Shown piece after piece: positions 8,719 through 45,165 of a stretch of 64,000 nucleotides of DNA. The translations under genes were made by a program, and so were the position numbers. Source of the stretch: Escherichia phage vB_EcoM_phAPEC6. The notes below the pieces were generated by a model. The model was not told the origin of the DNA, did not search any database, and saw only the letters and a program-made list of their open reading frames with translations. Numbering within the stretch: position 1 is the first letter of the stretch; every line of letters starts with the position of its first letter. The stretch is taken from the sequence record MK817115.1. One strand, written 5' to 3'.

Positions 8719-8750
8719 TAAAAAAAAGAGAACTCCATATGAAGTTCTCT
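8719..8750 (-). terminator. rho-independent terminator
   Basis: Stem AGAGAACT/AGTTCTCT, loop CCATATGA, A-run 8720-8727 on plus; downstream of 8782..11571. Confidence 0.5.
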
Positions 8751-8781
8751 GATTATACATAATTACTTTTTCTATGTCAAG

Positions 8782-11571
8782 TTATAAATCACGGAAACGA
8801 TTTGGTGTGTTTAAGCGGTACATTGAGTATAATCCCAATCCACGCATAATCTCACCTGCCCAGAAACCAAAAAACATACCATTATCAGTACCTTCTCTAA
8901 CTGCTGGACTCCATGAACCATTCATTGGTGAACCTGGATTTACAATAACATAATTCTTTTGAAGTTCGAGAACTAAGTTATCAGCGAGTGTTGTTAGACC
9001 TTCTATTTTACATCCAGCCAATCCAGCAGCACAAGCCCCAGCTAACCACAACCCACACATATGACCTGTAAAGTCCCAATCTGGACCTTCAACTGTGCCA
9101 TCTTTATTGAAGATTGTTGGTGAACGACCATCATTATCTTTTTGAAATTGAATTAAAAAGTGAATCCAATTCTCACAAAATTCAACAAGATCTGCTGGTG
9201 GTTCAATTCCTCTCTCTGCGAGTTCTTGCCATGCTCTGGCAGCCCCAAAGAACGCACGTGGTTCATACCCACTCCATGCTTGATCACCCCAATGTAGCAT
9301 AGTAAATGTATCTGGTTCACCATATTTTAAGTTATCCCAGCGGTTCCAAACATATGCTTGTGCACACGGACCAACAGTACCGAATTGTTGAGTAAACCAT
9401 GTTTGGGAATCTTTCATAAAGCTTAACATGTTTCCTAAGCGTGTGTTATCTACTGGCTGGTCTTTAAAACAATATATCACAGGATATTGATAACCTGGAT
9501 ACGGTAAACCACGCCATCCTGAATACTGGTTCGCATACGGGTCAGTGATGTTAGAAAATGGTATTGTTCCTGGTGTGTAATGCAATGAGTTTAACAAATA
9601 ATCCTTGATTACACAATCCCCTAACTGTGCAGTATATGGTGATTCACCTGCAATTGTTATTGAAAATGTCATAGTATAGTCATCACCGTCAGCATCCGTG
9701 TATAATTCTGGAATGTCATTAATACAATACCAATCAATTATTGCAGCAACACCATCTACTGGGGTTGTATCAGGTAAAATAGTAATATCTTCTAGTTCAC
9801 TATAAACTGGTGCATCTGGTCTTGGGTCAGAACTTGGATGATTTGGCTGATACCCAGATAAACGTAATGTATCGGAACTTAGTGTGATTGTAGTCCATTC
9901 CCCGTGTGTTGCAGGAATCATCCACCACCATCTCCAACCATTATCATCTACAATTCTTATATTGTAATCATCTTCATATGAACGATAGGTAAAAGATTTA
10001 ACTTCAGACTTATTTGTTGCTAATAGCCAAAATCCAATAACAGCACCATCATCTTCACCACAAACTAACTGATTAATGGTATCGCGGCGTGTAACTAATA
10101 TATCAGTACTATATATCATTTCGGACGTTGCTGCACCATAAGGAACAACAATTCTATTATCAGCAATTATATAAGGGGAACCATCTGCTTTCTTTTCTCT
10201 AACAAATGCACTTAAAGGTGTTAATGAATGTGTGATATTTTGGTCTTTACTTTCCGGTAAGCCACAACGATAACGAACAACATCATGGTCATTTTTTGTT
10301 TTTGACAATTCCAGTACTGGTTTAAATGATAACGGCTTACCATCATCACATACACCACCATAGTCTACAAGTAATTTAGAATCAGCATTGACCCTGAACC
10401 AAATAGCTTGTTGTTCCATAGTACTTTGTGCACTTTGGTCTTGCCTGATAGTAATATATCCTAGAGAATTTCTACCAAACTTAGCAATAGCATCACTAGG
10501 ATAAAAATATTCATAGGAAATACCATCAGTGAATGGTGTGGTTACAATTGTACTTTGTCTGAAAAATTTATCTCTGGAGTCAATATCACCATAAGCATAA
10601 CACGTTAGTAGTGAACATTTCCAACCCAAATAATGTTTTCTTTCTTTTGTTATTTTATATAACAAATAAGAAGCATCACTAAACCATAATTCTGCATCTG
10701 ATGCGTTATCAGCAAATTCCAAATCAATTGGAACATGAAGAGGGCGGTTGTGTTGCATTTCATTTCGTTGAATTATCACACCACCATATTCTACTGGTTG
10801 ACGATTTGCAAAATTTAATTTATATACACCATTAATTGTTGTATTCTTTAATTGAACAGTTCCTTTTTCAGATTCGTCAAAACCTTCTGCTAAAATATTA
10901 CCATCCCAGTCGATTTTTCTACCCATGAAATCGATAATCCAGTCAACATCATATTGTTCACCTGGTGTATCCCAATCAACACTACCATCTGGTAATAATG
11001 CTTTTACTGAAGCATTTATTTGGTTCCATGCTAACGCACCTTTGAATGCAAATGTCACTTTATCCAAGAACTGACCATAATATGGTGCACCATGTGGTAT
11101 TTTACATTGACCATTAGTAAATGTAAATTCTACTCCCTTGAAACCACCATGTGTGGGCCAGCCATCATCAGCTAAAGGCCAGTTAGCCAATATAGGTTCT
11201 TTGGCATTAACTATCCAGTTACATTGTAGTGGTGTAGGTGGATCTGGTAATTCACGTCCAGCATAAAAGTACTGATGATATGCGTCCCAATACCACTTTG
11301 CCTTATCTAAAAACATTGGATCATTTGTTGCCAGATACGCATAAATGTATCCTAAAATTAATAGACTTTGACCTTCTGTTGTCCCGTCACCGTTTGGTTG
11401 ACCTTCCATTGCAGAATAGTTAATAAAATGACGGTTGTTCGCCAAAACACCCTGATTATTCACCACATAATGTTGTACTGTTGGGTCTATTGTATCACCA
11501 GTATTTCTTTCAATAAATTTGTGATGCCCATAAAGAAGTTGTACAATATTATCAATATTATTGTTTAACAT
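8782..11571 (-). CDS. large virion-associated protein of unknown function
   Basis: 929 aa, Trp/Tyr/Gly-rich, lies in a cluster with tail-fiber genes; no catalytic motif recognised by eye. Confidence 0.5.
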   Translation of the reverse strand: MLNNNIDNIVQLLYGHHKFIERNTGDTIDPTVQHYVVNNQGVLANNRHFINYSAMEGQPNGDGTTEGQSLLILGYIYAYLATNDPMFLDKAKWYWDAYHQYFYAGRELPDPPTPLQCNWIVNAKEPILANWPLADDGWPTHGGFKGVEFTFTNGQCKIPHGAPYYGQFLDKVTFAFKGALAWNQINASVKALLPDGSVDWDTPGEQYDVDWIIDFMGRKIDWDGNILAEGFDESEKGTVQLKNTTINGVYKLNFANRQPVEYGGVIIQRNEMQHNRPLHVPIDLEFADNASDAELWFSDASYLLYKITKERKHYLGWKCSLLTCYAYGDIDSRDKFFRQSTIVTTPFTDGISYEYFYPSDAIAKFGRNSLGYITIRQDQSAQSTMEQQAIWFRVNADSKLLVDYGGVCDDGKPLSFKPVLELSKTKNDHDVVRYRCGLPESKDQNITHSLTPLSAFVREKKADGSPYIIADNRIVVPYGAATSEMIYSTDILVTRRDTINQLVCGEDDGAVIGFWLLATNKSEVKSFTYRSYEDDYNIRIVDDNGWRWWWMIPATHGEWTTITLSSDTLRLSGYQPNHPSSDPRPDAPVYSELEDITILPDTTPVDGVAAIIDWYCINDIPELYTDADGDDYTMTFSITIAGESPYTAQLGDCVIKDYLLNSLHYTPGTIPFSNITDPYANQYSGWRGLPYPGYQYPVIYCFKDQPVDNTRLGNMLSFMKDSQTWFTQQFGTVGPCAQAYVWNRWDNLKYGEPDTFTMLHWGDQAWSGYEPRAFFGAARAWQELAERGIEPPADLVEFCENWIHFLIQFQKDNDGRSPTIFNKDGTVEGPDWDFTGHMCGLWLAGACAAGLAGCKIEGLTTLADNLVLELQKNYVIVNPGSPMNGSWSPAVREGTDNGMFFGFWAGEIMRGLGLYSMYRLNTPNRFRDL

Positions 11572-11572
11572 A

Positions 11573-12109
11573 TCATACTCCTGCTCTAATTAATGCACCG
11601 TACCATGTAACTCCTTTATCATATGTTTCTAATGAAATAATATCTTTTTCACCAATTTCATAAGAAAGAACAACTGGTCTGTTATATGACCATTTAACAT
11701 TAGAACCCCAATTAACTAGGTTTGAACCTGTTTGTTGTGTTAATAGGATGGTAATTGAATAAACTTCAGTAGGAGCCGTACCAATCGAAATAGTAGTATT
11801 TCTATCAGATAAATTAATATTAAAAACAGAATTGCCCGACAGTGGATTAATTAAAATATTATTAGAACTTAATACATTATATAACTTATTACTTGCACTA
11901 TCATATAATGTTACCCATTCTGTTTCATGATTCTCGTTAGTAGCTTTAGCTTTTATCTTAACATTATTTTCAGAATCAGTCATTCCAGTCCATCCAGATA
12001 TAATAAAAGAACTGTTTTTATTAGTTCCGAATGATGCAATCACAGAATCACTAAGAGAACTATCTTCACCATCAATAGATCCGAGTACTGACAATGTTAA
12101 AACCATCAT
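11573..12109 (-). CDS. hypothetical Ser/Asn/Thr-rich protein
   Basis: 178 aa; overlaps 12072..12263 in another frame, possibly one gene with a frameshift. Confidence 0.4.
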   Translation of the reverse strand: MMVLTLSVLGSIDGEDSSLSDSVIASFGTNKNSSFIISGWTGMTDSENNVKIKAKATNENHETEWVTLYDSASNKLYNVLSSNNILINPLSGNSVFNINLSDRNTTISIGTAPTEVYSITILLTQQTGSNLVNWGSNVKWSYNRPVVLSYEIGEKDIISLETYDKGVTWYGALIRAGV

Positions 12110-12263
12110 TTTTAATGTCTACACCAGTAGCACCAGAAAAATTATTTTGAAATTTAATAACTCCGGTAGTGTGGATATCTGTGAAAATTTGTTGTGCCAT
12201 ACTTAATCCTTGTGTTAATTTATATTGAGTATTTATTGAGTGTAATGGCATTTTTAGTACCAT
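12072..12263 (-). CDS. hypothetical small protein (possibly N-terminal part of 11573..12109 via frameshift)
   Basis: 63 aa ORF overlapping the next ORF by 38 nt; similar composition. Confidence 0.3.
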   Translation of the reverse strand: MVLKMPLHSINTQYKLTQGLSMAQQIFTDIHTTGVIKFQNNFSGATGVDIKNDGFNIVSTRIY

Positions 12264-12277
12264 TACACTTGTATATG

Positions 12278-13510
12278 TTACTTATACCATTGCATTTCTC
12301 TAATATCAATGATAATTTTTGATGCTAACTTGATGTTTGGTTTTTTAGGAAGTACTGATTTCTTATATAGAACATCACGAATGTATTGTACTTTATCATC
12401 GAAATATTCTAATACTTCTTCATACTTCCATTTACCATTACGAATATCCATCAACATTTGTGCATCTGGTCGTTTAACTTGAATAATTCCACTTTGTAAC
12501 GCTTCTTCTGCACTATTCAAAAGTCGGATTGTGTGCATAGCATGTTTACAATCGTATCCGTGTTGTGATTCTAAAATAGCACGTTTGGCATTACGATTTT
12601 CTTTCCATTTATGATAACTTTTCCTATTCTCACTATTTTCCTGATATTCTTTTTCGTTAAATTTGACAATTAGTTCTGGTTTGGTTTTCAACTCTTCAGT
12701 ACTACGTTCTTTTGAAAAATAACGCAATGAACCATCATGGTTAATAGTGCTTTCATTAGGATTCTTAACAATCGCAAAAATGTTTTCTCCGTAATGAATT
12801 AGTTCATAACCATTATTAAAATTCAATAAATTGAAATCACGATCAAGAATTTTTTCAGTAGTGTAGTTATGCACTAATCTTACGAAATGATATTGCTTTA
12901 ATGGATTTTTCGAAACTAACTGCAATGATGTATCACGCATATATTTTTCAAAATCAATCTTTTTAGCATTAAATGGATGTAAGTTGGATGTATCTAAACG
13001 TTCAACAAGATACTGTGGGAATGAATCATACATCCACGCAAGAACCTCATCGACAGGGTGTTCTTCTAAAATCTCATTTAATCGTTTTTCAGCAATACGC
13101 TCTTTATCCATCCAACCGTGATGATTTGTCATACGCTTAATCTGATTATATGCATATCCAGTGTATGAAAATGCAATCTTGGAACTAAGAAGTTTTTGGT
13201 TAAATGAACGAAGATAGTCATAAATTTCAGTACTTTCCACAATGTGTTCAGGTTCAACCCAAAGTGATTCAAGAATATTAGGGTTAGCTTCAGTGTATAA
13301 TTTTAAATACTGATTCAACTCATAGAATTTAGTATCTTCTTCGCTTTTGTCAGCTACCTCGTTGACCTTATAGAAGGGTGTAAGAATAAATTCTTTATTA
13401 GCAAGAAAAATACCACGATAATCAGTATCACTTTCCGGTGTACTGGTTCCGTAGGCTTGTGACCCAGCCAAGTGTTTCACTATTGTTTGTTCAATATATT
13501 GGTTATTCAT
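12278..13510 (-). CDS. Pol-beta-superfamily nucleotidyltransferase-domain protein
   Basis: 410 aa; N-terminal GSQAYGTSTPESDTDYRG fits the minimal NTase motif GS-x10-DxD. Confidence 0.5.
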   Translation of the reverse strand: MNNQYIEQTIVKHLAGSQAYGTSTPESDTDYRGIFLANKEFILTPFYKVNEVADKSEEDTKFYELNQYLKLYTEANPNILESLWVEPEHIVESTEIYDYLRSFNQKLLSSKIAFSYTGYAYNQIKRMTNHHGWMDKERIAEKRLNEILEEHPVDEVLAWMYDSFPQYLVERLDTSNLHPFNAKKIDFEKYMRDTSLQLVSKNPLKQYHFVRLVHNYTTEKILDRDFNLLNFNNGYELIHYGENIFAIVKNPNESTINHDGSLRYFSKERSTEELKTKPELIVKFNEKEYQENSENRKSYHKWKENRNAKRAILESQHGYDCKHAMHTIRLLNSAEEALQSGIIQVKRPDAQMLMDIRNGKWKYEEVLEYFDDKVQYIRDVLYKKSVLPKKPNIKLASKIIIDIREMQWYK

Positions 13511-13908
13511 AGATAAATTGTTAACTCCTTTAAGAAACCATTATAATAACGATTAAAGTCATGTTCTAATGTTTTATAATCATCAAAACTAAAACCTAAA
13601 TTGATAATTGTATCTTCTTGAAAGAAAGTTTCTTCATTCATACATTCAATAGGTTCGTAATTAATTCCACCTTTGAAAACTTTTGTAAAAAACATTCCAT
13701 CATTATTAATTTCAACATACATAAAATTATTTTCTGGGTCACGAGGACAGACGATATTCAGTGAACTATTTCCACTTGTATTGTACTCATAAGAAATTAT
13801 ATCAAAAGAATCAATACCATAACACTTAGATTTTTCTTTATCGCCAAATACTTTTCTATCTGTACTCATATTGCGTATAGTGCTATAGATATCATCAACT
13901 GTAGTCAT
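13507..13908 (-). CDS. hypothetical protein
   Basis: 133 aa ORF. Confidence 0.4.
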   Translation of the reverse strand: MTTVDDIYSTIRNMSTDRKVFGDKEKSKCYGIDSFDIISYEYNTSGNSSLNIVCPRDPENNFMYVEINNDGMFFTKVFKGGINYEPIECMNEETFFQEDTIINLGFSFDDYKTLEHDFNRYYNGFLKELTIYL

Positions 13909-13910
13909 AG

Positions 13911-14420
13911 TTAACCACCATACTTTGACTTGTATGTTTCAAGTGATAAAGATATACGATTTTGCTTTTTAATTCTTTCATCAATATCCTTTGAATTCTT
14001 CACACTTCGGTATACGTCAGCTAATAAATTATAATCTTCTTTATTTGAGCTATGCTGTGTCCAACCTATGTCTGTTTTAATACGAACATTTGCTTTATTT
14101 GACGAGTAAAAGAAACTGAAACCATTTGACCCATCAAAAATATCAAAAGTATCTACCCAATCACCATAAGGAAAACTCATCGGGACTGACTCGTGGTCGA
14201 TTGTGATATCCGATAAATTTTTTGAACAGTACTTCGCAAAGTGATAAACAATTGGATCACATTTAGATAATTCATATTTGTATTCAATGATAGTTTTTCT
14301 ATTAGCATCATTGATAGCATATTCTTTCATCAATGGGCTTTTTTTGATGATAAGAGTCCACAGAAACGATTCTAATCCGGTTTCATCAACTTTTTGTTTC
14401 TTTTTGAAAAATGAAATCAT
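13911..14420 (-). CDS. hypothetical protein, member of tandem paralog triplet
   Basis: 169 aa; shares DANRKTIIEYKYELSK-type motif with 14417..14938 and 14945..15511. Confidence 0.45.
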   Translation of the reverse strand: MISFFKKKQKVDETGLESFLWTLIIKKSPLMKEYAINDANRKTIIEYKYELSKCDPIVYHFAKYCSKNLSDITIDHESVPMSFPYGDWVDTFDIFDGSNGFSFFYSSNKANVRIKTDIGWTQHSSNKEDYNLLADVYRSVKNSKDIDERIKKQNRISLSLETYKSKYGG

Positions 14421-14938
14421 TTATATAAACCCTTAATTTTCTGTCTATTATGTATATCATTTTGCTGGATTTTCAATTTAGTAAGGTTGTTTCTTACACC
14501 TTCAACTCCACGCATTATTTGTAACATAATTAGTGATTCGTCATATGTTAGTACATTGCTATTATTATCGATATATACTTTCACTCCACTTTCAAGATAA
14601 TCATTTTCTTTGGAGTTAAAGTTTCTAATAGCAAACTTAACGCCATTTGATGTATCACTGAAAACATATCGTTCCGCACCGTAGAATGTTTTTCCACGAA
14701 ATAAACCGCCGTCTTCCCACTTCCAACGACTAGATTCATAATCATTAACGTAATCAATGATTAAAGAAAGTAAAGGGTGTTTGCTCAATTTATATTTTGC
14801 ATCTAACAGGATACGTCTATCATTATCTGTGGTGATAATATCCTTTAGTGAGTAGCTTTTAGATATAATTTTAAAGATAATTTCATGCCAAATTAAAGTA
14901 CTGTTTTGTTTTCCAACTGATCCAAAAAACATATCCAT
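14417..14938 (-). CDS. hypothetical protein, member of tandem paralog triplet
   Basis: 173 aa; motif DNDRRILLDAKYKLSK. Confidence 0.45.
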   Translation of the reverse strand: MDMFFGSVGKQNSTLIWHEIIFKIISKSYSLKDIITTDNDRRILLDAKYKLSKHPLLSLIIDYVNDYESSRWKWEDGGLFRGKTFYGAERYVFSDTSNGVKFAIRNFNSKENDYLESGVKVYIDNNSNVLTYDESLIMLQIMRGVEGVRNNLTKLKIQQNDIHNRQKIKGLYK

Positions 14939-14944
14939 TCCTCA

Positions 14945-15511
14945 TTAGTATAAATCAGTAATGTCTTTGTATGCATTAATCTGTTTTTGTTGTAATGAAA
15001 GTTCATTGAGTTTAGTTACCATTTTATCTACACCAACACGTGTATAGAAAATAATAAATGAATCTAAATTGCCTAGAGTAATTCTTGAACTGTAATTTGA
15101 AAGTTTTCTTGCATAAACATAAATTTCTTCTTCACTTGGTAAACGTTTCTCAATCGGCCAGCTTTCCACACCATTCGGCTCATAATCGATTTCAAATTCA
15201 ACTCCCATCACTGTGTCTTGAATGAGATCCGTATATGAACCACCGTAAAAATACTCTCTTGGTTTGGCTCTCCAACGAGGACTAAATGGGTCAGATGCGT
15301 ATTCTTTTACAAATTTGTAAAAGGACATTTTACTGAGCATATACTTCATCTCAATTAGTGCTTTGCGGTCATCATCAGTTTTAAACTCTGCTTTGAGCGA
15401 TGGACTTTTACACAGTAACTTAACTAAATTGATGTACATCTTTAATGTACGTTGTTCTTTCATTTCTTTGATTTTGTGACGTTTTGGTGGCGGTAATAAA
15501 GATTTGACCAT
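14945..15511 (-). CDS. hypothetical protein, member of tandem paralog triplet
   Basis: 188 aa; motif DDDRKALIEMKYMLSK. Confidence 0.45.
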   Translation of the reverse strand: MVKSLLPPPKRHKIKEMKEQRTLKMYINLVKLLCKSPSLKAEFKTDDDRKALIEMKYMLSKMSFYKFVKEYASDPFSPRWRAKPREYFYGGSYTDLIQDTVMGVEFEIDYEPNGVESWPIEKRLPSEEEIYVYARKLSNYSSRITLGNLDSFIIFYTRVGVDKMVTKLNELSLQQKQINAYKDITDLY

Positions 15512-15544
15512 AATTTCCTCCTATTTTTATTCAATTATACACAT

Positions 15545-15573
15545 AAAAGAAAAGCCCGTCAATAGACGAGCTT
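15545..15573 (-). terminator. rho-independent terminator ending the tail-fiber operon
   Basis: Stem AGCCCGTC/GACGAGCT (one mismatch), A-run on plus 15547-15552; just downstream of 15579..18308. Confidence 0.45.
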
Positions 15574-15578
15574 TAAAT

Positions 15579-18308
15579 TTATTTCCAACGTGTACCTGGA
15601 CCTGATGGTACACCAGTACTGGCAGGTATCGCTGAACCACGTTTCGTTGTACTTGGACGATATGTCAAAAAACGAGTTACTTTTTCTGTATCAATTGAAG
15701 TTATTCCTGAAGTTCCAGTAACTATCTTACCAATGTAAGTGCTAGTTAAAGATTCATCAATTGTTTCAGTACTAATAACATATGACGCTTTCTTAGTATT
15801 CCTGTTCATTTGTATATACAAATAGAACGTAGTATTAGCTGGGTTACTTTTTACAGTACTTAAATCAACACTTTGTATAGGTAGTCTGTCGAAAATTCCA
15901 CCTAAAAACACCGGAACTTCACGTGTAAAGTACACTGAGAATCCTTGTGCAACGTCTTGTGATACTACCACAATCTTTTCTTTAACGCTACCATTTCCAC
16001 TAATTAAACCATCCATTTCAGCAGATGTTGTACCAAAAACGCTGAATACAGATTTGGTTTGATAGTCAGAATCTTGAAAATTGTAATATCCAAAACCAAC
16101 ACCAGGAATAACACCATGTTGATATGCTGCACCAAGTTGGATGTAACTAGATGATAAAAAACGATTTGATGTTATGACACCATCTACTGTTTTAGCTATC
16201 ATCATCTTAAATTGTGCATTACCTGGTTGTGAAAATTGATGAACAGCATCAACACCAATGTAACCAAATCCTGAATATTTTGCAACTGTTAGACCAGTAC
16301 AACGTTTCATATATGCTTCAGTAATAATTCCTGTAACAGAACTAAGTGTCTCATATCTAGTACTCACCAATGTAGCTGAAGTTATGTTAGTTCCAGATAA
16401 TACAACATCAACTTCGGCATAGATTGCATAACCTTGGTTATTGTTAAGATTATATGCTGAAACTACTGCGATGGATTTAGAAAAAGTATTATCAGGTACA
16501 TAATATAATACAATTTGTCCAGATAGTGTGCCAACAATGCCAGAGTTTCCTATATTAGCAAAAATATCTTGTTTTAATGATTCTAATACCGTTGGTTCTA
16601 TTGTATATGTTTCATCAAATTCTAAAGTATCTGGGTTTAATAATCCACCACTTGTTTTATATACACCTTCAATGAATGATGTTCCATAGCATCTAACACT
16701 ACCATCGGTATCAACAAGAGAAATCATAGCAGTGTATGTAAAATCATCGCCTATTTGTTTACGATTAGATTGTGGTGCAAAACCATTTAATGTAGTATTA
16801 TTTTGAACTGAGTTATATTGATATGTTGGTTGTGAACCTATTTCAGAAAAAACAGTATTATTATAATTATATGTTACATCATCATACGTACCAGAACATG
16901 CTAATAATATTTTTCTATTATCGATGAAACGTACACCTAAAAGGTTTGCACCAACAGCACTACCAAAAACTGGTAAAACGTTTGCATTTATAACGTTACT
17001 TGCGGTTCTAGTACTGGCAACCCATGAATCAAACGGTGTACCACTAACCTTATATCGTTGTAGACCATAAAATTCAGTTGAACTCCATCTAAATTTAGAT
17101 GCAAATACCAAACCATCTTTAGTTTGACATAAACCACCTGCGTTTCCTAATACACCAGCAGCAGTTGTCCCTGTGAAGTTGACCATATTAATTTCAAATG
17201 GGTTAGAAACTTGAAATCCATTATTATATGAAACAGTTGCAGGTGCACGAGCACTACCATCTAGTGACATAGATTTTGAGTTTATATTATAAACAAAACT
17301 TATTCCAGTACCATAAACTGTTGAAATATACAAAGGTGTAACCATTCGATGTGTTGGATATAAAGTTACACGTATTTTTGATAAATCAGTACTAACGTTG
17401 GCTTGAATGTTAAAGTCTGTATAGTCTGAAAATTCTACACGTGATACTGGTGATGTAACTTCGAATAATGAATCCGAGCTAGTACCAACACTATATAATT
17501 TATCGAACACTCTTATGTTATTAGATGCAGAATAACTTGTGTTTCGAACAGTTTGACCTGATAACCCAGTAACTTTTGTTAATGATGCCATTGAGCTTGC
17601 TTTCACATCACTTAGCTCTACTGTATAAATTGAAAGTGCTAATCCTAAATTAGAAACACTTTTATCTTTACACCAAATATAAACCTTTGTCCCAACAATA
17701 TGTGTATATATTGGCATATCATTACCAAAAGAAGTACTTGGCACTTTAGCATGAATATGTGATATTTCGTTAAATGTGCCATTGGTTATAGTAAAAATAT
17801 AATTATCTTCAGTACTTAAACATCCAAGCATCTCATAACCATTAGAGCCAATAAAATACTTAATATTTTCAGTACTACTCATAATTGAAGGTTTATACAT
17901 TGAATTGGTTGAAATAACACTTTCTTGTGAAATCATAGTTATATTTCGGAGTTCTCGTATAAATGAATAATAAAAACCTTTAGTACTACCATTGGTTCCG
18001 CTACGCAGAACAACGGCGGTTCCATCATCTTCAATAATTGTTGGCTGAACTACTTGGTCACTTGACATAGGTGTAGCACCTTCATACGACCCACTTACGT
18101 TTAATGGTAAGTAATCCATTTCTCCTACACGTGATATAGGCAACATATCTAAAATACTTTGAACTTCTGAACGCTTATATATTGGATATTGAACAATTCC
18201 AGTATTGGCATTCGGTGAGGTTCCATTAAAAGTACGCATAGCGTACCTTTGTCCAATTGCCAAGTTCCCAAGGATCTCGGCACTTCCTATAATTCGTTTT
18301 GATGACAT
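15579..18308 (-). CDS. tail fiber protein
   Basis: About 909 aa from ATG 18308 (RBS AAGGAAAAG); N-terminal LRSGTNGS and C-terminal VVSQDVAQGF...SRF.TYRPS module shared with 18924..21620 and 18325..18912; track ORF start 18398 is probably too long. Confidence 0.55.
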   Translation of the reverse strand: MSSKRIIGSAEILGNLAIGQRYAMRTFNGTSPNANTGIVQYPIYKRSEVQSILDMLPISRVGEMDYLPLNVSGSYEGATPMSSDQVVQPTIIEDDGTAVVLRSGTNGSTKGFYYSFIRELRNITMISQESVISTNSMYKPSIMSSTENIKYFIGSNGYEMLGCLSTEDNYIFTITNGTFNEISHIHAKVPSTSFGNDMPIYTHIVGTKVYIWCKDKSVSNLGLALSIYTVELSDVKASSMASLTKVTGLSGQTVRNTSYSASNNIRVFDKLYSVGTSSDSLFEVTSPVSRVEFSDYTDFNIQANVSTDLSKIRVTLYPTHRMVTPLYISTVYGTGISFVYNINSKSMSLDGSARAPATVSYNNGFQVSNPFEINMVNFTGTTAAGVLGNAGGLCQTKDGLVFASKFRWSSTEFYGLQRYKVSGTPFDSWVASTRTASNVINANVLPVFGSAVGANLLGVRFIDNRKILLACSGTYDDVTYNYNNTVFSEIGSQPTYQYNSVQNNTTLNGFAPQSNRKQIGDDFTYTAMISLVDTDGSVRCYGTSFIEGVYKTSGGLLNPDTLEFDETYTIEPTVLESLKQDIFANIGNSGIVGTLSGQIVLYYVPDNTFSKSIAVVSAYNLNNNQGYAIYAEVDVVLSGTNITSATLVSTRYETLSSVTGIITEAYMKRCTGLTVAKYSGFGYIGVDAVHQFSQPGNAQFKMMIAKTVDGVITSNRFLSSSYIQLGAAYQHGVIPGVGFGYYNFQDSDYQTKSVFSVFGTTSAEMDGLISGNGSVKEKIVVVSQDVAQGFSVYFTREVPVFLGGIFDRLPIQSVDLSTVKSNPANTTFYLYIQMNRNTKKASYVISTETIDESLTSTYIGKIVTGTSGITSIDTEKVTRFLTYRPSTTKRGSAIPASTGVPSGPGTRWK

Positions 18309-18324
18309 CTTTCTTTTCCTTAAT

Positions 18325-18912
18325 TTACCAACCAATTGTACCAGTTTCTGATGGTTTTCCAGTACTGACTGGGAATGAAGAACCTTTTTGTGTAACACTA
18401 GGTCTATATGTACTAAATCTGGATACTTTATTAATGTTTATATTTGTAATACCACTTGTACCAACGGTCAGTGTTCCAATAAACATTATAATTTCAGATT
18501 CTTGTATTTGTGTTGGTGATATTTTATAAATTGGTTCACCGAGAACTAACGTTGCATATACGTATTGTGTTTGTGTTCCAGATGAAACAGTTGAAGCAAA
18601 AATAGAAACTGCTGGAAATTTATAAAGATAACCACCAATAAATGATGGTATCTGTCTATTAAATGTAAGACTATAGCCTGATGAAGTAATATTTAGACTA
18701 GCGTCATCATACAATTCTCCGTATTGTGTAAGTGGTAATCCATTGACAATAAAGTTAACTTCATCTTTGGTAATAGAGGGGAATGTACATTCCCCATTTG
18801 AATTTGTTGGGTAATAAGTCATATTATTACCTAATACACCAAGACCAGTACTTTTACCCTGAACTGTAACTTGTTGCATTGCCTTAAGGTCTGCTCTTAT
18901 TTTATATGCCAT
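18325..18912 (-). CDS. small tail fiber-related protein carrying the shared C-terminal module
   Basis: 195 aa; C-terminus SRFSTYRPSVTQKGSSFPVSTGKPSETGTIGW matches the C-termini of both large fiber proteins. Confidence 0.5.
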   Translation of the reverse strand: MAYKIRADLKAMQQVTVQGKSTGLGVLGNNMTYYPTNSNGECTFPSITKDEVNFIVNGLPLTQYGELYDDASLNITSSGYSLTFNRQIPSFIGGYLYKFPAVSIFASTVSSGTQTQYVYATLVLGEPIYKISPTQIQESEIIMFIGTLTVGTSGITNININKVSRFSTYRPSVTQKGSSFPVSTGKPSETGTIGW

Positions 18913-18923
18913 TATGTAATCCT

Positions 18924-21620
18924 TTACCAGTTTATGGTTCCTGTTTGTGATGGTAGACCGTAGCTAACTGGGAACGATGAACCTGCTGATTCAAGTGAAG
19001 CACCAAATATATCTAAACGGGAACGTTTTTGTATATTAATTGTTTCGATTTGAATTGCATTAGTTTGAATTGTACCTATCCAAAAAATATTATATGCAGT
19101 TGTCCCTGTTTCAGAAATAACATCAGTAGTTATGTAATAGTTTGCCAATCCTTGTTCCAATTTAACATATACATAAAATGTTGTATTTGCTGGATTAGAC
19201 TTAATAGTTCTCAAATCAATATTTGAAACTGGTAGTGAAAATGACTTACCTGAAAGAATAACTGGTGTTTCCTCTGTAAAATATACAATAAACCCTTGAG
19301 CAACGTCCTGGGATACTACGTTAATTGGGCTACCTTGTGCAGTCCAGTTATTATAGTCTGCAATCGTTGTTCCATATTTTTTGAATGTCATTTTATTTGA
19401 GTAATCCATTGGTTCAAAAATTCCAAAACCAATACCAGGTAATGCTGCTGGTTGACTTCCTTGTTCATAACTGGCATGAGATCCAGTAATTATAAAACTT
19501 GTAAATTGTGCAGTTGATTTAGTTACATATGCTCTAAATTGATGAGTTGCAGTATTACCTATTGTTGGATGTGATAATGGGTCAGAACCACCAATGAAGT
19601 AGAATGAACCACCATCATATATGGTCAAACCAACAGAAGAAGATGCAATCGAACCATTCCCAGTTGGTGTAAAGTTATCACCATACGTATTCTCAAGTAC
19701 TAAACGCTTAAATGTAATAGATGTAATATTACCAACTCTAGTATTGACATTAACTTCAGCAATTCTAATATAGTTTCTATAATCATTAGTAATTGTACTC
19801 AACATAACAAAAGCTGGAATGTCTGTTTGTTGTGGAACAAATAGTGTCATATCACGGTATGCTTGTGCTGATAAATTCCAATCACTTAGAACTTTGGCAT
19901 ATTCAGTATTTCTAAAATTGTCCAGTACTGATTGTGTAACGCTTATAATTCCTGTGCCATTTAAGTTTTTATCATAGGATAATGATTGTGAATAACGTTG
20001 CCCAACCATAAAAATACCACCATTGGTTGTGACAGTTGACCCAGAAATACTACTAATAAAAATTCTATTATTTGCATTATCATCAACATTAGCACGTTCA
20101 ACTGTAGGTTCATAACCTTGTATTGTTCCTAAAGATAATGATTTAAATGTAAAATTAGGAGTACTTTTATGAACTGCATATGATGGTCTAAATCCACCAC
20201 TACCTGATGCACGTGAATATTGTTTAGTACTGTTATCTGGTAGTAATTCTACACCATTAATAAATGAACCAACCGCTGAACCAAAAGACGGGCGAACTAT
20301 ACCACCTTTGAAGTCAGTAGAAAGTACAGCACGGACATTCAGCATACTATAAACTATTTGAATAGGAAACTTAGCTTTTTGCATAAGTAATGGTTCTGCT
20401 AAGTTTGGACATGTAGTACAAAAAGCTTCACCAGAATTCAAATAAAAATATGAACTATAAATGTTTCTTGCATTTGCATGGTTATACAATGGATCGTTAT
20501 TTAAAACGTTACCAGTAGGAACTAATGCCGAACCAGTATTAGTTATAACTAATGGTGCTTGATATGAACCAATATCGTTACCCGCATCTAATGTACATTG
20601 TTTAGTACTCATATTGAACACAAAACTGTAACTATGCTGTGGACGTGTATTATATGTTGCCATTGTAAACCAAGCGTCCCCGTTCATTCTAAAGCGGAAA
20701 TTCTGCGTTCCTGGCTGCTGTGCAACATATAAATCAATTGATGTCATGTAAATCCCAATACCACGTAGATTTTGTGGAACATACACATAAGGTTTATCAG
20801 CAATATTTGTTGATGTTACCTGATTAGTAATAACCATATTATTTTGTGCAGAATATGTCGTGTTATAAAATGTTTTAGTAGTCCATCCAGTAATTCGAGT
20901 TGCAGTATAAGTACCATTGCTTATATTATAAACAACTTTTACAACAACTAATTGTAGTTGGTTATTTTCATTAAGTACGTTAAAAACATATATAGAACCA
21001 TCTTCTGCCATCATAGCATATTCAATACCACCTTCAGGTGATATATCTGCTTGGTTAACGAAAAAACCAGTATGCAATTTATCATCTAATGTACCATTGG
21101 TAATTGATATGAACAAACCATTAGTACTGTTAGAAGTATCAATATATCTACCGAGTAAAATATTTGGATCAGTATTGTATAAACCAATCGCAACTCTATT
21201 TGAACCAAAAAACCCAGGCTTGTATTGACGACTAGTGTTAATTGTACGGCTCATGTCATCAACTGATAATGCGTTAGCCAAATATGAATAAAATAATCCC
21301 TCAACACTACCGTTTGTCCCACTACGTAAAAGTACTAGTGTACCATCGTTTTCTAATAAAATTTTATTTCTACGTTGTGACTGGTTTTCTGATGCACCAT
21401 TGAAATCCCCAGAAACACCCGCAGGTAGATAGTTTTGTGAACCATAATGGGAGATTGGCATCATACTTACTATATCTAGTACTTCATCTCTGGAATAAGT
21501 ATCTAATTCCAAGTTACCGTTGGAATCAAAAACTTGTTCATTTATTCCTTGAATTGTTCTTTTACCATTAACTGTCACATTATGTGTGACATCTAAGCCA
21601 CCATATATTTTCTTTGACAT
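18924..21620 (-). CDS. tail fiber protein
   Basis: 898 aa; paralogous to 15579..18308; T4-type late promoter upstream. Confidence 0.55.
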   Translation of the reverse strand: MSKKIYGGLDVTHNVTVNGKRTIQGINEQVFDSNGNLELDTYSRDEVLDIVSMMPISHYGSQNYLPAGVSGDFNGASENQSQRRNKILLENDGTLVLLRSGTNGSVEGLFYSYLANALSVDDMSRTINTSRQYKPGFFGSNRVAIGLYNTDPNILLGRYIDTSNSTNGLFISITNGTLDDKLHTGFFVNQADISPEGGIEYAMMAEDGSIYVFNVLNENNQLQLVVVKVVYNISNGTYTATRITGWTTKTFYNTTYSAQNNMVITNQVTSTNIADKPYVYVPQNLRGIGIYMTSIDLYVAQQPGTQNFRFRMNGDAWFTMATYNTRPQHSYSFVFNMSTKQCTLDAGNDIGSYQAPLVITNTGSALVPTGNVLNNDPLYNHANARNIYSSYFYLNSGEAFCTTCPNLAEPLLMQKAKFPIQIVYSMLNVRAVLSTDFKGGIVRPSFGSAVGSFINGVELLPDNSTKQYSRASGSGGFRPSYAVHKSTPNFTFKSLSLGTIQGYEPTVERANVDDNANNRIFISSISGSTVTTNGGIFMVGQRYSQSLSYDKNLNGTGIISVTQSVLDNFRNTEYAKVLSDWNLSAQAYRDMTLFVPQQTDIPAFVMLSTITNDYRNYIRIAEVNVNTRVGNITSITFKRLVLENTYGDNFTPTGNGSIASSSVGLTIYDGGSFYFIGGSDPLSHPTIGNTATHQFRAYVTKSTAQFTSFIITGSHASYEQGSQPAALPGIGFGIFEPMDYSNKMTFKKYGTTIADYNNWTAQGSPINVVSQDVAQGFIVYFTEETPVILSGKSFSLPVSNIDLRTIKSNPANTTFYVYVKLEQGLANYYITTDVISETGTTAYNIFWIGTIQTNAIQIETINIQKRSRLDIFGASLESAGSSFPVSYGLPSQTGTINW

Positions 21621-21653
21621 TATATATCCCTTATAAATTAGATATTAGTTAAT

Positions 21654-21661
21654 GTATTTAT
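21654..21661 (-). promoter_or_regulatory. T4-type late promoter TATAAATA
   Basis: Plus TATTTATA = minus TATAAATA, about 34 nt upstream of the ATG at 21620. Confidence 0.45.
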
Positions 21662-21669
21662 ATACATAA

Positions 21670-21692
21670 TAAAAAAGCACCCAACGGGTGCT
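21670..21692 (-). terminator. rho-independent terminator after nrdG
   Basis: Stem AGCACCC/GGGTGCT, loop AAC, A-run 21671-21675 on plus. Confidence 0.5.
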
Positions 21693-21696
21693 TATG

Positions 21697-22167
21697 CTAA
21701 AAATCTTTATTTTTATATAGTATTCTTTGATTATTTGAACCACGGAAAGGTAATTTTAAATTCTTTTCGGACTCAATAAACTTACCATCAACTAATACAT
21801 CTAAGTACTGAAGTATATCTTTAGCATGATTTTTCATAATCTCATCTAAAGTATACCCACTCCAGCACCAAATAGTTTTACTAGGATAAGTTTCTTTAAC
21901 TACTTTGCATAGATTTAAAACTTCATCTATATTCTTTTTCATTAATGGATCGCCGCCTAGAAGTGACAAACCACTAACATATGGTTTTTTTAGTTCCTGT
22001 AGTATAATCTCAACTGTTTCAGTACTGAACAATTGACCACTTCTGTAATCCCATGCTTCTTCATTGAAGCAACCATCACATCCGTGCGAACACCCACTAA
22101 CAAATAAAGAGCAGCGAACGCCCTCTCCATTTACTAAATCATCCTTGATTATCGTCTGGTAATTCAT
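21697..22167 (-). CDS. nrdG: anaerobic ribonucleotide reductase activating protein (radical SAM)
   Basis: 156 aa; CSHGCDGC cluster; adjacent to nrdD. Confidence 0.85.
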   Translation of the reverse strand: MNYQTIIKDDLVNGEGVRCSLFVSGCSHGCDGCFNEEAWDYRSGQLFSTETVEIILQELKKPYVSGLSLLGGDPLMKKNIDEVLNLCKVVKETYPSKTIWCWSGYTLDEIMKNHAKDILQYLDVLVDGKFIESEKNLKLPFRGSNNQRILYKNKDF

Positions 22168-22471
22168 CTAATATTGCACTCACTATTTCGACAAGAACAT
22201 CGCCGTGACATGATTTTGGTTTACAGAAACAACCAAGGCGTTTCCCTGCGAGTTCAAGTAATTCATCAATCTTAACTTCTCCACAAGAAATACGTTCAAT
22301 AATGTATTCTCTGAATTTTTCAATTGATTCTTCTCTTGTACTAACAATGAACTCGGCTTTGGTTTGTTTATCTTTAATATGGGTAAATGGGTTTCCCCAT
22401 TTAGACCCACGTCCAATATACACATCATACGGTTCTTTGTATTTGTTAACCACAATTGGCTTTAAATCCAT
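22139..22471 (-). CDS. conserved phage protein (DUF4326-like)
   Basis: 110 aa; YDVYIGRGSKWGNPF motif; sits between nrdD and nrdG. Confidence 0.45.
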   Translation of the reverse strand: MDLKPIVVNKYKEPYDVYIGRGSKWGNPFTHIKDKQTKAEFIVSTREESIEKFREYIIERISCGEVKIDELLELAGKRLGCFCKPKSCHGDVLVEIVSAILDELPDDNQG

Positions 22472-22479
22472 AATTTACC

Positions 22480-24348
22480 TTATTTGTGCTGAATACGCTC
22501 ACAACACTCTTGTTGCTTGCCTTTATTGAAGCCACGCGAAGAAGGATTACCCAAGTACCCAGAAACACGACGAATCACTGAGATTGTCTTCTCATTACGA
22601 TTATCACATACAGGACAGTGGAAACCATGTTTATCTACACTGAACTCACCCTGGAAGCCACATTCATAACAATGGTCAACTGGTTGGTTAATACCAAAAT
22701 ATGGTATCTTAGTGTACGCATAGTTAACTAATGTTTCAAGTGCTTGAATGTTGTTTGCTAAGTTTGGAGATTCAACATAACTGATGTTTCCACCGTTACT
22801 TAGGTAAGCAAACCCTTCTTCATAACTCCATTTATCAAATGGAGAACTTTCTACCCATACTGGTTGATGGAAGGAATTTGTGATGTAATCACGTTTTAGT
22901 ACTGAAGGATATTTTGCTTCAATGCAACGTGCAAATTTATAACAAAGCGACTCTGCTGGAGTTCCATATAGACTAAAAGCAATATTACTTTCTTTTTTGA
23001 ACTCATCACATTTTACTTTCATATAATTCAGTACTGACATACAAAACTCCTTACTGATAGAACCAGTGAGGATTTCTGAACATTCAACAAGACCAACATA
23101 ACCAATACTAATACTAGCATAACCATTGTAAAATAGCTTGTCAATAGTTTCTTCTGCACCTAAACGTGCTAATGCACCTTCCATGAACAAAATTGGATTC
23201 TGCTTCGCTTTAGTGCCTTTTAAACGCTCCACACGGTTCATCTGAGCACGATATGCAATATTCATATGCTCGTCTATCTTATCAAAAAACTCTCCATCAG
23301 AATCACTCTCAAGAGCAATTAGAGGTAAATTGATAGAAACCACACCTAAATTGAAACGACCGTTGTATTGTTCATTTCCATTTGAATCTTCCCATTTTCC
23401 TAAGAATGAACGACATCCCATCGGTGTTACAGCAGTACTACTACTTCCCGTCACTTTGTGATTTAATGGAACTGAAACAAAGTCTGGGTAGATTCGTTTT
23501 GATGCACAACGCATAGCTAACTGTTTAAGGTCATAATTACTATCATTGGTATTCATGTTTATACCATCTTGTAAAAAGAAAATTACTTTAGGAAACACTG
23601 GAGTAATCTTATCTTTACCTAAACCATTCTCATGAACTTTTAAGTACTGTTCAGTGATTAATTTACCAAATTTAGAAGTATTAAGCCCTAAACTAAGAGA
23701 AATGAATGCAGCTTGTCCATTAGTGCTAATCATTGAATTAGTCTGGTAAAGTAATGTTTGACATCCATCGTATACTTCTTTTCGTAATTCTTCTTCAATG
23801 AACTCATCACTTAGATTATATTTCTTTTGTTTTTCTAACAGCTTATCCCATGACTTTTGAACGTAAGGTTCTAAACCGACATCAATGTGAGCCAACGATT
23901 GACCGCCGTATTGGGAACTAGCTACAGCTTGTACAATCTGTGTCAGTACTGTACATGCTACACTAAAACTCTTTGGTTCTTCAATTTTGGCACAACCAAT
24001 GGTAAATCCATTTTTTAGCATATCTGGGTAGTTAACTAAGCAACAGTTGGTTAATGGGCTGATATAGTAGTCTAAATCATGAATATGACCATAACCATCA
24101 TTATGCCACTGCATTAGCTCATTTGGAATAACATCTTGTGAATAATGCTTAGATAGGATACCTGCAAGTAAATCCCTGTGTGTATTGACGCATTTCGCAT
24201 CTTTGTTCGCATTTTCGTTGGTAAGATCAGTATTGCTCTGATTGAGGAAATTCGTTACGTCAGTATATAATTTATCTAATTGCATTGTACATTCCTTGTA
24301 TTTTGAAATCATCTGGGGGTGAAGATATTTAATATCACCAGACAACAT
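22480..24348 (-). CDS. nrdD: anaerobic ribonucleoside-triphosphate reductase
   Basis: 622 aa; C-terminal glycyl-radical motif RVSGYLG and Cys cluster CYECG...CPVC; uninterrupted (no intron). Confidence 0.9.
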   Translation of the reverse strand: MLSGDIKYLHPQMISKYKECTMQLDKLYTDVTNFLNQSNTDLTNENANKDAKCVNTHRDLLAGILSKHYSQDVIPNELMQWHNDGYGHIHDLDYYISPLTNCCLVNYPDMLKNGFTIGCAKIEEPKSFSVACTVLTQIVQAVASSQYGGQSLAHIDVGLEPYVQKSWDKLLEKQKKYNLSDEFIEEELRKEVYDGCQTLLYQTNSMISTNGQAAFISLSLGLNTSKFGKLITEQYLKVHENGLGKDKITPVFPKVIFFLQDGINMNTNDSNYDLKQLAMRCASKRIYPDFVSVPLNHKVTGSSSTAVTPMGCRSFLGKWEDSNGNEQYNGRFNLGVVSINLPLIALESDSDGEFFDKIDEHMNIAYRAQMNRVERLKGTKAKQNPILFMEGALARLGAEETIDKLFYNGYASISIGYVGLVECSEILTGSISKEFCMSVLNYMKVKCDEFKKESNIAFSLYGTPAESLCYKFARCIEAKYPSVLKRDYITNSFHQPVWVESSPFDKWSYEEGFAYLSNGGNISYVESPNLANNIQALETLVNYAYTKIPYFGINQPVDHCYECGFQGEFSVDKHGFHCPVCDNRNEKTISVIRRVSGYLGNPSSRGFNKGKQQECCERIQHK

Positions 24349-36479: not shown

Positions 36480-36500
36480 TTTTGTTTAGGAAGATATAAA

Positions 36501-36529
36501 TAATATAGTACTTAAACACTTAAGTCAAA
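36501..36529 (-). promoter_or_regulatory. sigma70-like promoter (TTGACT-N17-TATTAT) for 35856..36479
   Basis: Reverse complement of 36501-36529 reads TTGACT, 17-nt spacer, TATTAT. Confidence 0.3.
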
Positions 36530-43546: not shown

Positions 43547-44749
43547 TTATAGATAATACTTTCCAATATAAAGTGGATTACTAATTGATAGTTGAACGTG
43601 ACACGGCTTATCTTGGTAGTAACGAGAACTTGATGTTTTGCGTTCATTTGGTGGGAAGAATGGGGAACGATAGCCATTCCATGTACTAAATGATGAGTGT
43701 TCATTAATATCAACATCCATTACCATAATCCCATTATCATCAATTTGAACTGGATATGCACTAAAGCGTTCAAATTTATCATTATAATGGATATTATAAT
43801 CTCCACTACGCCCATAATAACTACGCGTTGTATTATTACTTACACCAAAAAATACGCGATATGTTTGTTCATTATCTTTAGTCATAAATGGTACGTTCTC
43901 GTTGAAACGTCCATTATTCATAAGATCATCAACATTTATTTCTTCATATTTAATTTTTAGGTCTTTTGCTTTAAATGATTTATTGTGTACCAGTACTGGA
44001 ATGTTAGATTCACCTAATGGGTTATGTCTGTTTGTTCTATAGCTTTGCCAAAAATCATTAGCAAGTTTAATTTCTTCATCTGCCGTAGTCTTCTTATTCA
44101 AGAGTGCACGAGGTTCCAGATTGTAATTATCCAAACGTTGATTCAATGCATAAGTTCCACGAGTACTGTTGAAAAGTAAATGATAAACAGAACTTTTGTC
44201 GGGGTATGCAAATTCTTTAGTTTTCTTTATACAAATTGCATGAACTTTACCGCAGTAATAGTAATCTTCTTTGAGATAAGTGAAACCATCACCAACTTTA
44301 AGACCTGCTACAGTTTCTTTTTGTTGTTCTTTTTTATTTTCTTTTTCAACTAACTTAGCAAACGTTTTTGTTTTACCATTAATTAATTCTAAGTTATTGT
44401 TGAAAAACATTGGGTCTACAAAAACACCTTTGATTATATCGTTATTGATAATTAAATCATTCATGTTTTTGGCACTAATCATAAATTCAAATCCTTCTGG
44501 GTGACGGATCGTGAAATATGTTTCTCGTGCATGAGTTGTTAATTTATCAACTACACAAAATCCCGTAGTTGGAACGTTGTCAATATATAACGATGGAAGA
44601 TTGTTCTTCTTTGCCCAGTACTCTGCTCTCTCTTTCTTTGTTTCAAACGCTTTTGTATGTGATTTTGTTGCATCGATAATAAAACCATCAACTTGGTTGT
44701 GGTTTACATAGGAACGTGCAACAAATAACTTCTCTGGAAAATCCATCAA
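43547..44749 (-). CDS. hypothetical protein
   Basis: 400 aa ORF. Confidence 0.5.
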   Translation of the reverse strand: MMDFPEKLFVARSYVNHNQVDGFIIDATKSHTKAFETKKERAEYWAKKNNLPSLYIDNVPTTGFCVVDKLTTHARETYFTIRHPEGFEFMISAKNMNDLIINNDIIKGVFVDPMFFNNNLELINGKTKTFAKLVEKENKKEQQKETVAGLKVGDGFTYLKEDYYYCGKVHAICIKKTKEFAYPDKSSVYHLLFNSTRGTYALNQRLDNYNLEPRALLNKKTTADEEIKLANDFWQSYRTNRHNPLGESNIPVLVHNKSFKAKDLKIKYEEINVDDLMNNGRFNENVPFMTKDNEQTYRVFFGVSNNTTRSYYGRSGDYNIHYNDKFERFSAYPVQIDDNGIMVMDVDINEHSSFSTWNGYRSPFFPPNERKTSSSRYYQDKPCHVQLSISNPLYIGKYYL

Positions 44750-45165
44750 ATAGTCCTCATTGTGCTGATTGCTTTTAATGTGTCAAACAATGCACCATAT
44801 TTTACTTGCATTAGTTGATCACCAGCAGGAAGATTCATACGCATAACAGCCATGTCTTCAATCATTTCAGACGTACACAGTACTGCTACACAGGTAATAG
44901 CATCATTCAATCCAGCTTCATTGAATTTGGCAAACGGAACTTTTCCCTGTTTGCTAAGGTTGTTATAATAAGAATTTAACTTATCATGTCCACCAGCATT
45001 TAGTACTACAATAGTTTCGTGTTCATAGTACCATTCATCAATAATAGTACTGAAAGCAGTACCTTCATATTCTTTAATTAGTTTAACACCAGCATGGAAT
45101 GCTTGAATACCAGCTTGGACACCTTGGCAGTACATATTAGTTAAACAATACAATTTCATTTCCAT
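44746..45165 (-). CDS. hypothetical protein
   Basis: 139 aa ORF. Confidence 0.4.
   Translation of the reverse strand: MEMKLYCLTNMYCQGVQAGIQAFHAGVKLIKEYEGTAFSTIIDEWYYEHETIVVLNAGGHDKLNSYYNNLSKQGKVPFAKFNEAGLNDAITCVAVLCTSEMIEDMAVMRMNLPAGDQLMQVKYGALFDTLKAISTMRTI

Follow-up and report, generated by a model that had tools for sequence, protein, structure and literature searches.

Our subject is a stretch of 64,000 nucleotides (nt) of Escherichia phage vB_EcoM_phAPEC6 (sequence record MK817115.1), called the window below, and within it three consecutive minus-strand genes that we name C, B and A in their reading order. Together with their homologues they are referred to as the family, and they stand directly downstream of a group of late genes (Table 1). 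The DNA around them (13000-16500) is 99.9% identical to that of the Escherichia phages BF17, vB_EcoM_G17 (G17) and Sharanji, and 99.4% identical to that of 121Q. The latter is a member of the genus Asteriusvirus, which are "Rak2-like" jumbo myoviruses of ~350 kb. In 121Q and G17 the counterparts of the three genes (gp502-504, or G17_00421 to G17_00419) are all annotated "hypothetical protein". The original prediction, made from the sequence alone, described a tandem triplication behind a tail-fibre operon and proposed that its products were either fibre-associated (chaperones or adhesin accessories) or a diversified set of effectors.

Table 1. Features of the three genes and of their surroundings in the window (aa, amino acids; pI, isoelectric point).
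Feature	Position	Strand	Description
Late promoter TATAAATA	21655..21662	-	T4-type; 35 nt before ATG 21620; only minus-strand copy in the window
Late operon, three paralogous "fibre-like" genes	15579..21620	-	898, 195 and 939 aa; 121Q gp499-501
Rho-independent terminator	15551..15574	-	hairpin AAAGCTCGTCTATTGACGGGCTTT and T-run; ends the upstream late structural operon; also annotated in G17
Sigma-70-type promoter	15534..15562	-	TTGACG-17-TATAAT, 11/12 matches; top-scoring promoter in 11000-22500
Shine-Dalgarno sequence	15517..15522	-	AGGAGG, 5 nt ahead of the ATG of C; read from the sequence
Paralogue C	14945..15511	-	type I, 188 aa, pI 9.2; homologue of 121Q gp502 / G17_00421; leads the putative early operon
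Paralogue B	14417..14938	-	type I, 173 aa, pI 9.2-9.4; homologue of 121Q gp503
Paralogue A	13911..14420	-	type II, 169 aa, pI 8.7; homologue of 121Q gp504
gp505 homologue	13507..13908	-	133 aa, acidic, pI 4.4; 2 nt past A, 4-nt overlap with the RlaP gene
RlaP-family (Pol-beta) nucleotidyltransferase	12278..13510	-	410 aa; PF10127 E=8e-16, phrog_388; closes the putative operon

The genes and their family

The three open reading frames (ORFs) lie where they had been reported, on the minus strand, and contain the peptides quoted for them (NDANRKTIIEYKYELSK in A, TDNDRRILLDAKYKLSK in B, and TDDDRKALIEMKYMLSK in C). Their similarity is significant under pairwise alignment and under profile searches. 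B and C align end to end by BLASTP (E=7e-16, 30% identity), and A aligns with B (E=3e-4) and with C (E=1e-4) over its N-terminal ~40 residues only. Profile comparisons add to this evidence. First, alignments of the two subtypes defined below (I and II) match each other end to end with hhalign (98.9% probability, E=3.4e-17, 157 columns). Second, phrog_18641, which matches B (3e-85) and C (8e-80), cross-matches A (5e-5), and phrog_7868, which matches A (6e-58), cross-matches B (6e-12) and C (5e-6). A is therefore a full-length homologue of B and C, and the three genes constitute a single paralogous family. The two PHROGs, of which A, B and C are direct members, are both labelled "unknown function" and are treated by the databases as unrelated, whereas here they form one family with a constant pairing of types I and II. 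C, which by our mapping is phAPEC6 gp320c, matches the family profile at E=8e-46; B has 171 aa if started at ATG 14932, the start annotated in G17 and 121Q; and the start of A overlaps the stop of B by 4 nt (ATGA). A search for a fourth copy in the window found none. The genes are a real paralogue array, which is an ordinary feature for jumbo-phage genomes: the authors of the RaK2 genome counted ~10% of its genes as paralogues (PMC3622015). The family members are not listed in the BLASTP paralogue table of the CBB authors.

Word-indexed homologue searches returned close relatives only, and delimiting the family took an exhaustive scan with HMMER over 1.84 billion representative proteins. The family consists of just 31 clusters at 50% identity; their lengths are 139-209 aa, save for two fragments that are only 50 and 74 aa long. 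Every member examined by tblastn and contig look-ups sits in a syntenic Rak2-like phage context, at a conserved position and with 2-4 copies per genome. The hosts of the family are Asteriusvirus, Alcyoneusvirus (RaK2, K64-1, Muenster), Salmonella phage Munch and its relatives, Mimasvirus-type phages (GAP32, CBB, Yersinia fHe-Yen9, and Erwinia and Serratia phages), and metagenomic relatives of these. Members already recorded as hypothetical proteins include, besides those of 121Q, GAP32_146/148/150/151, CBB_150/153/155/156 and RaK2 gp001 (probably also gp002); the type I copy of RaK2 occupies nt 41-514 of its genome. In a neighbour-joining tree the members fall into two subtypes: type I, with C, B, Muenster 235 and Munch 172, and type II, with A, Muenster 236, Munch 174 and GAP32_148. 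Because every genome examined has at least one copy of each subtype and the split between C and B is confined to the Asteriusvirus lineage, the tree points to an ancient duplication that produced types I and II, followed by one extra duplication of type I in Asteriusvirus. Hence, three paralogues are indeed present, as originally proposed, but they did not arise by simple triplication.

The family diverges quickly. Relative to L011, an Asteriusvirus-like metagenomic contig, its members are 30-37% identical, against 75% for RlaP, 62% for gp505, 67% for HNH and 87% for gp509h. Relative to Muenster the values are 26-41% for the family, 74% for RlaP and 59% for gp505, and relative to Munch the family is at most 25% identical or undetectable, against 59% for RlaP. 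Since these identities are far below those of RlaP and gp505, the family is one of the fastest-evolving parts of this neighbourhood, except in the closest comparison, with a few residues fixed.

These fixed residues can be placed on an AlphaFold2 model of B built from an alignment of 30 sequences (pLDDT 86.2, pTM 0.76); a model from 7 sequences (pLDDT 48) was not used. After an N-terminus (1-16) that is predicted to be disordered, the model has helices at 17-25, 31-34, 38-52 and 57-65, a small four-stranded sheet (72-75, 89-95, 100-106, 119-123) whose length varies in the family, and a long helix at 132-171. The near-invariant residues are, in B numbering, D38, R41, K48, Y49, S52, D95 and the C-terminal Y172. 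The first five stand on helix 38-52 and make up, with K53, a conserved polar stripe in the four-helix N-terminal part. The C-terminal 40-residue helix has a heptad-like 3-4 hydrophobic repeat over 141-172, a conserved Gln at 159 and an invariant Tyr at its end. The N-terminal tail is Lys-rich, and many members start with M-x-x-F-F-K-K-K. The three proteins of the window are basic and of 19-22 kDa.

Annotation searches gave no credible relative. No Pfam hit was found for A, B or C at E<=0.1, and 30 family members gave scattered single-member Pfam hits only (E>=0.015). Searches of NCBIfam, PADLOC and PDB sequences with A, B, C and the 30-member alignment gave nothing credible, and a PADLOC match to DUF2290 (E=0.003) is at chance level. 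Annotated PHROGs gave only single-member, chance-level hits; among them, a match of A to "HNH endonuclease" (E=0.005) was dismissed because only one of the 30 members has it. No RNA-binding domain was found in the family, nor any PDB relative of the model of B.

Genetic context and virion proteomes

The array begins just past the terminator of the upstream operon, as had been noticed at the outset: the 939-aa gene ends with a stop codon at 15579, and the hairpin follows at once, at 15574-15551. The -35 box of the sigma-70-type promoter ahead of C is embedded in the descending arm of this hairpin. The same junction is found elsewhere. All ten other Rak2-like loci that were read (Munch, Muenster, GAP32, CBB and six metagenomic contigs, covering several genera) have a terminator and a promoter ahead of the first family gene, and in most of them TTGAC lies inside the hairpin; L008 and L011 have a weaker -10 hexamer. 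The window has three exact TTGACN-17-TATAAT sites, all on the minus strand. If up to one mismatch is allowed, the window has 22 such sites where 5.3 +/- 2.1 would be expected, and the coding strand carries 19 of them. Near-consensus -35 and -10 boxes with a 17-nt spacing, kept in relatives, are what one would look for in the sequence of an early gene.

Behind this promoter the genes C, B, A, gp505 and RlaP follow each other with gaps of 2-6 nt or overlaps of 4 nt throughout, and gp505 is kept in Muenster, Munch and L011. Late motifs have another distribution. The next late-like motif after RlaP, TATAAATT at 12224-12217, stands ahead of a 42-aa ORF and of the tail-fibre genes at 12200-8782. The T4-type motif is depleted in the window, with two copies (21655-21662 and 36495-36502) against 13.4 +/- 3.8 in dinucleotide shuffles, which suggests selection against stray late promoters. 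In CBB and GAP32, for which three classes of promoter have been published, RpoD-like promoters were described for early genes and ATAAATA late promoters before structural genes, together with a gp55-like sigma factor (PMC5259590). Because the family has its own sigma-70-type promoter behind a terminator, is tightly packed with the genes down to RlaP, and has late motifs only at the flanking structural genes, A, B and C may well head an early operon set between late structural islands. A similar arrangement occurs at 8728-8780 (minus strand), where an exact TTGACA-17-TATAAT is followed at once by the hairpin AGAGAACTTCATATGGAGTTCTCT and a run of eight T; it resembles the design at 15534-15574, in which the -35 box is inside the terminator. 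A transcript from the promoter at 8728-8780 would start within the left arm of the hairpin, and so this terminator may stop only the read-through from the fibre gene and spare the transcripts of its own promoter.

The operon upstream of the array had been taken for a tail-fibre operon. Its structural and late character holds, and its identity as fibres is presumed. Its 898-, 195- and 939-aa genes share a C-terminal domain of ~120 aa (phrog_26864), their N- and C-terminal ends are conserved between strains while the middle is variable, and only the 898-aa gene among the three matches a phAPEC6 virion protein. The start of the 939-aa ORF (15579-18398) is uncertain: the listed GTG at 18398 overlaps the preceding gene, G17 annotates 909 aa from ATG 18308, and the 121Q version is shorter.

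The published virion proteomes of phAPEC6 (62 proteins), RaK2 (54 proteins) and CBB (lists from mass spectrometry, MS) all hold structural proteins encoded on the flanks of the family, and the family is in none of the three. In phAPEC6, whose entries were assigned to genes of the window by exact molecular mass, virions contain gp314c (105.34 kDa, 8782-11571), gp315c (4.66 kDa, 12072-12200) and gp323c (98.62 kDa, 18924-21620). The seven genes between the detected ones are absent, i.e., RlaP, gp505, A, B, C and the homologues of gp501 and gp500. The RaK2 list has gp526-534 and lacks gp001 and gp002. In CBB, 148 and 149, the counterparts of the upstream genes, are MS-positive, and 150 and 153 are not. 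This rules out a structural adhesin role and is compatible with a chaperone role.

The downstream fibre genes on the minus strand (8782-12200) comprise the 42-aa ORF at 12072-12200, a 178-aa ORF at 11573-12109 and a 929-aa ORF at 8782-11571. The product of the first, gp315c, was detected in phAPEC6 virions with 69% coverage and is thus a very small virion protein encoded ahead of fibre genes. This cassette is present in 121Q, G17 and L011, and missing in the Asteriusvirus Ecwhy_1, where the RlaP gene abuts the gp510 homologue. It is therefore an insertion/deletion polymorphism of a receptor-binding module.

Candidate functions

The best reading of these data, to which we give about an even chance of being correct, is that A, B and C are early, non-structural proteins involved in host takeover or counter-defence. 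They would stand at the head of an operon that the host RNA polymerase transcribes early, in the order C, B, A, gp505 and RlaP, with B and A translationally coupled, and their products would serve, soon after infection, as accessory factors directed at the host or at its defences. Types I and II would probably form oligomers through their long C-terminal helices. Helix 3, with its conserved stripe, would contact a partner that is itself conserved, while the sheet region, which evolves fast, would face a variable partner. The original alternative of a diversified effector set is compatible with the early-type promoter, the non-virion status, the fast divergence and the clade-restricted paralogues, whose fold has no solved relative, the effector activity itself being putative.

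A number of points weigh against this reading. First, the early timing is deduced from the promoter sequence alone, and a literature search found no transcriptome or essentiality data for Asteriusvirus, Alcyoneusvirus or Mimasvirus. Second, no terminator was found between RlaP and the next late-promoter-like site, so that what marks the operon as a unit is the tight packing of its genes and not transcript mapping. Third, the absence from virion MS lists is negative evidence. Fourth, fast divergence could equally mean relaxed constraint, and in the comparison with the close relative Ecwhy_1 the family (~92% identical) is above its neighbours (72-88%). Fifth, synteny is broad among Rak2-like phages, which makes a conserved position weak evidence of functional linkage. 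Finally, both the host-directed role and the oligomerisation, which is read from the helix pattern only, are putative.

A more specific role, which we regard as possible if rather unlikely, is that of accessory subunits in RNA repair: types I and II would associate with tRNA or RNA ends, or else with the enzymes, and present substrates to RlaP and, in the Mimasvirus-type phages, to Thg1, which would help to restore tRNAs cut by host anticodon nucleases. In jumbo phages, RlaP (as a prediction) and Thg1 are counted among the enzymes of RNA repair (PMC7824862). RlaP is downstream of the family and in the same orientation in 14 of the 14 loci that reach far enough, even for the most diverged members, at distances of 8 nt to ~1.2 kb, although the independence of these loci is limited because all belong to one broadly syntenic clade. 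This linkage survives local gains of Thg1, DUF4326, N4-cytosine methyltransferase and small ORFs, and in L015 a family gene directly abuts RlaP. The Mimasvirus-type loci close to GAP32 with a called Thg1 are GAP32 itself, CBB and five metagenomic contigs; in each of them the Thg1 gene ends 35 nt inside the type II gene. The basic nature of the family proteins and the presence of pseT and rnlA in the window also fit the proposal. However, RlaP and Thg1 are present in a great many phages and bacteria that lack the family, the genes of the phage RNA ligase and kinase lie at a distance of 35 kb, neither an RNA-binding fold nor an RNA-binding motif was recognised, and such a fast divergence would be unusual in a partner of conserved enzymes and tRNAs. 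Thg1 was found in 164 phage records of many groups, among which the Rak2-like ones are of Mimasvirus type only. The link with it was set aside, as it is absent from Asteriusvirus, Alcyoneusvirus and the Munch-type phages and common elsewhere without the family. No family member was found outside Rak2-like phages among the 31 clusters, so there is no co-occurrence with RlaP or Thg1 beyond the clade. In view of this distribution of Thg1 and of the broad synteny of the clade, the functional link between RlaP and the family is put forward as a hypothesis.

The loci with the overlap between Thg1 and type II are exemplified by L003 (6256-7510), with equivalent positions in L006, L007, L008, L009, L010 and L013. 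In Mimasvirus-type loci a DUF4326 gene comes directly after, while the DUF4326 ORF of the window is at 22139-22471, between nrdD and nrdG. In the diverged metagenomic relative L017, a protein with an S1 RNA-binding domain is encoded right after RlaP (10929-11411), in the same operon as the family. Going by how identical DNA is annotated in G17, the window encodes the polynucleotide kinase/phosphatase pseT (49823-50755), the RNA ligase A rnlA (51579-52721) and a weak Pth2-like ORF (44746-45165). It also holds Sir2, Nudix, WGR, ClpP and PhoH genes, which makes it a region rich in RNA-repair and NAD-related counter-defence functions.

A variant that joins this proposal to the early reading, and that we consider speculative and unlikely, is a hetero-oligomeric early effector of types I and II, with a fold that lacks solved relatives, that either neutralises a host defence nuclease targeting tRNA or RNA, or escorts damaged tRNA to RlaP (and to Thg1) next to it.

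The fibre-associated role of the original prediction is not supported by these data. In its chaperone form, which we judge improbable, the family would provide non-virion assembly chaperones for the upstream fibre-like proteins, with a role like that of gp57A/gp38 of T4 or Tfa of lambda and Mu. The location directly downstream of the distal fibre gene is the classical one and is kept across all genera, the proteins are not in virions, as would be the case for a chaperone, and the variable middle region could confer fibre specificity. Gene 57 of T4 is also not strictly late. Directly upstream of the RaK2 copy lies gp534, a fibre-tip protein whose repetitive beta-structure is of a kind that reportedly requires a chaperone; expressed alone, the protein was insoluble (PMC10253068). 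Yet the terminator and the sigma-70-type promoter uncouple the family from the late fibre operon in every lineage read. The upstream fibres are themselves non-homologous between genera while the family stays: RaK2 and Muenster have depolymerase fibres instead of the gp499-501 type, those of Muenster being SP6/phi92/P1-like, and tblastn finds no match to gp499-501 there. Neither do fibres and family co-vary. In the comparison with L011 the fibre is 64% identical (89% at its C-terminal end) versus the family's 30-37%, while fibres are 72-85% identical to those of Ecwhy_1, with the family at the higher value given above. The divergence of the family thus appears uncoupled from that of the fibres, which, together with the lack of relatedness between the fibres of different genera, argues against a dedicated fibre chaperone. 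Furthermore, A, B and C match no tail-fibre-assembly family in Pfam, PHROGs or NCBIfam and have no likeness to Caudo_TAP, gp38, gp57A or any annotated PHROG chaperone, and the Mimasvirus-type copies are interleaved with Thg1, DUF4326 and DNA methyltransferase genes, not with structural ones. The downstream fibre genes (8782-12200) were rejected as partners, since Ecwhy_1, which does without this cassette, keeps the three paralogues.

Lastly, the family might act on the transcription or replication machinery during takeover, like the small early proteins of T4 that bind RNA polymerase or the nucleoid, with the C-terminal Tyr tail and the N-terminal FF-KKK peptide as docking motifs; the early-type promoter, the basic proteins, the conserved terminal peptides (F4/F5, Lys 6-10 and the final Tyr) and the finding by the CBB authors of a gp55-like late sigma factor with no gp33 or gp45 homologues (PMC5259590), which leaves partners unassigned in the clade, agree with this, but they are purely circumstantial, there is no likeness to known RNA polymerase-binding, clamp-binding or nucleoid proteins, and core regulators of this type tend to be encoded by single-copy genes that evolve slowly, so that we consider it very improbable.

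Implications and comparison with known systems

If the early, non-structural reading is right, it has several consequences: 1) some 2-4 "hypothetical" genes per Rak2-like phage move from possibly fibre-associated to one early, non-structural family, with two obligatory subtypes and a predicted fold that has no solved relative; 2) A, B and C are probably not part of the host-recognition apparatus, and should therefore not be swapped along with fibre cassettes when phages of the 121Q, PBECO4 or RaK2 type are engineered or used in therapy; 3) the junction with a promoter embedded in a terminator illustrates how these genomes keep their early operons apart from the late structural islands. Should the RlaP link be functional, the family would offer an entry point to the organisation of tRNA repair or counter-defence in jumbo phages, and the hetero-oligomeric effector, if true, would be an unrecognised component of RNA repair or counter-defence specific to Rak2-like jumbo phages.

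The family shares features with several known systems. The "head plus coiled-coil stalk" proteins XRCC4, PAXX and SAS-6 are among the closest, and no significant structural superposition with the same topology was found for the XRCC4-superfamily fold. Like tail-fibre chaperones (T4 gp38/gp57A, lambda/Mu Tfa, Caudo_TAP), the proteins are small, non-virion and encoded downstream of the last fibre-like gene; unlike them, they have no similarity in sequence or fold to these chaperones, a separate early-type promoter past a terminator, and no co-variation with fibres. A further parallel would be with the early accessory arrays of large virulent phages, e.g., the early genes of T4 and anti-defence clusters. 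The family differs from many early accessory genes in that the pair is retained in every genus of the clade examined, and it is placed in this class by circumstance, not by sequence. It resembles such arrays in its sigma-70-type promoter, in the small size, tandem arrangement and clade-restricted distribution of its genes, in diverging faster than its neighbours, and in its place beside the counter-defence enzymes RlaP, Thg1 and N4-cytosine methyltransferase.

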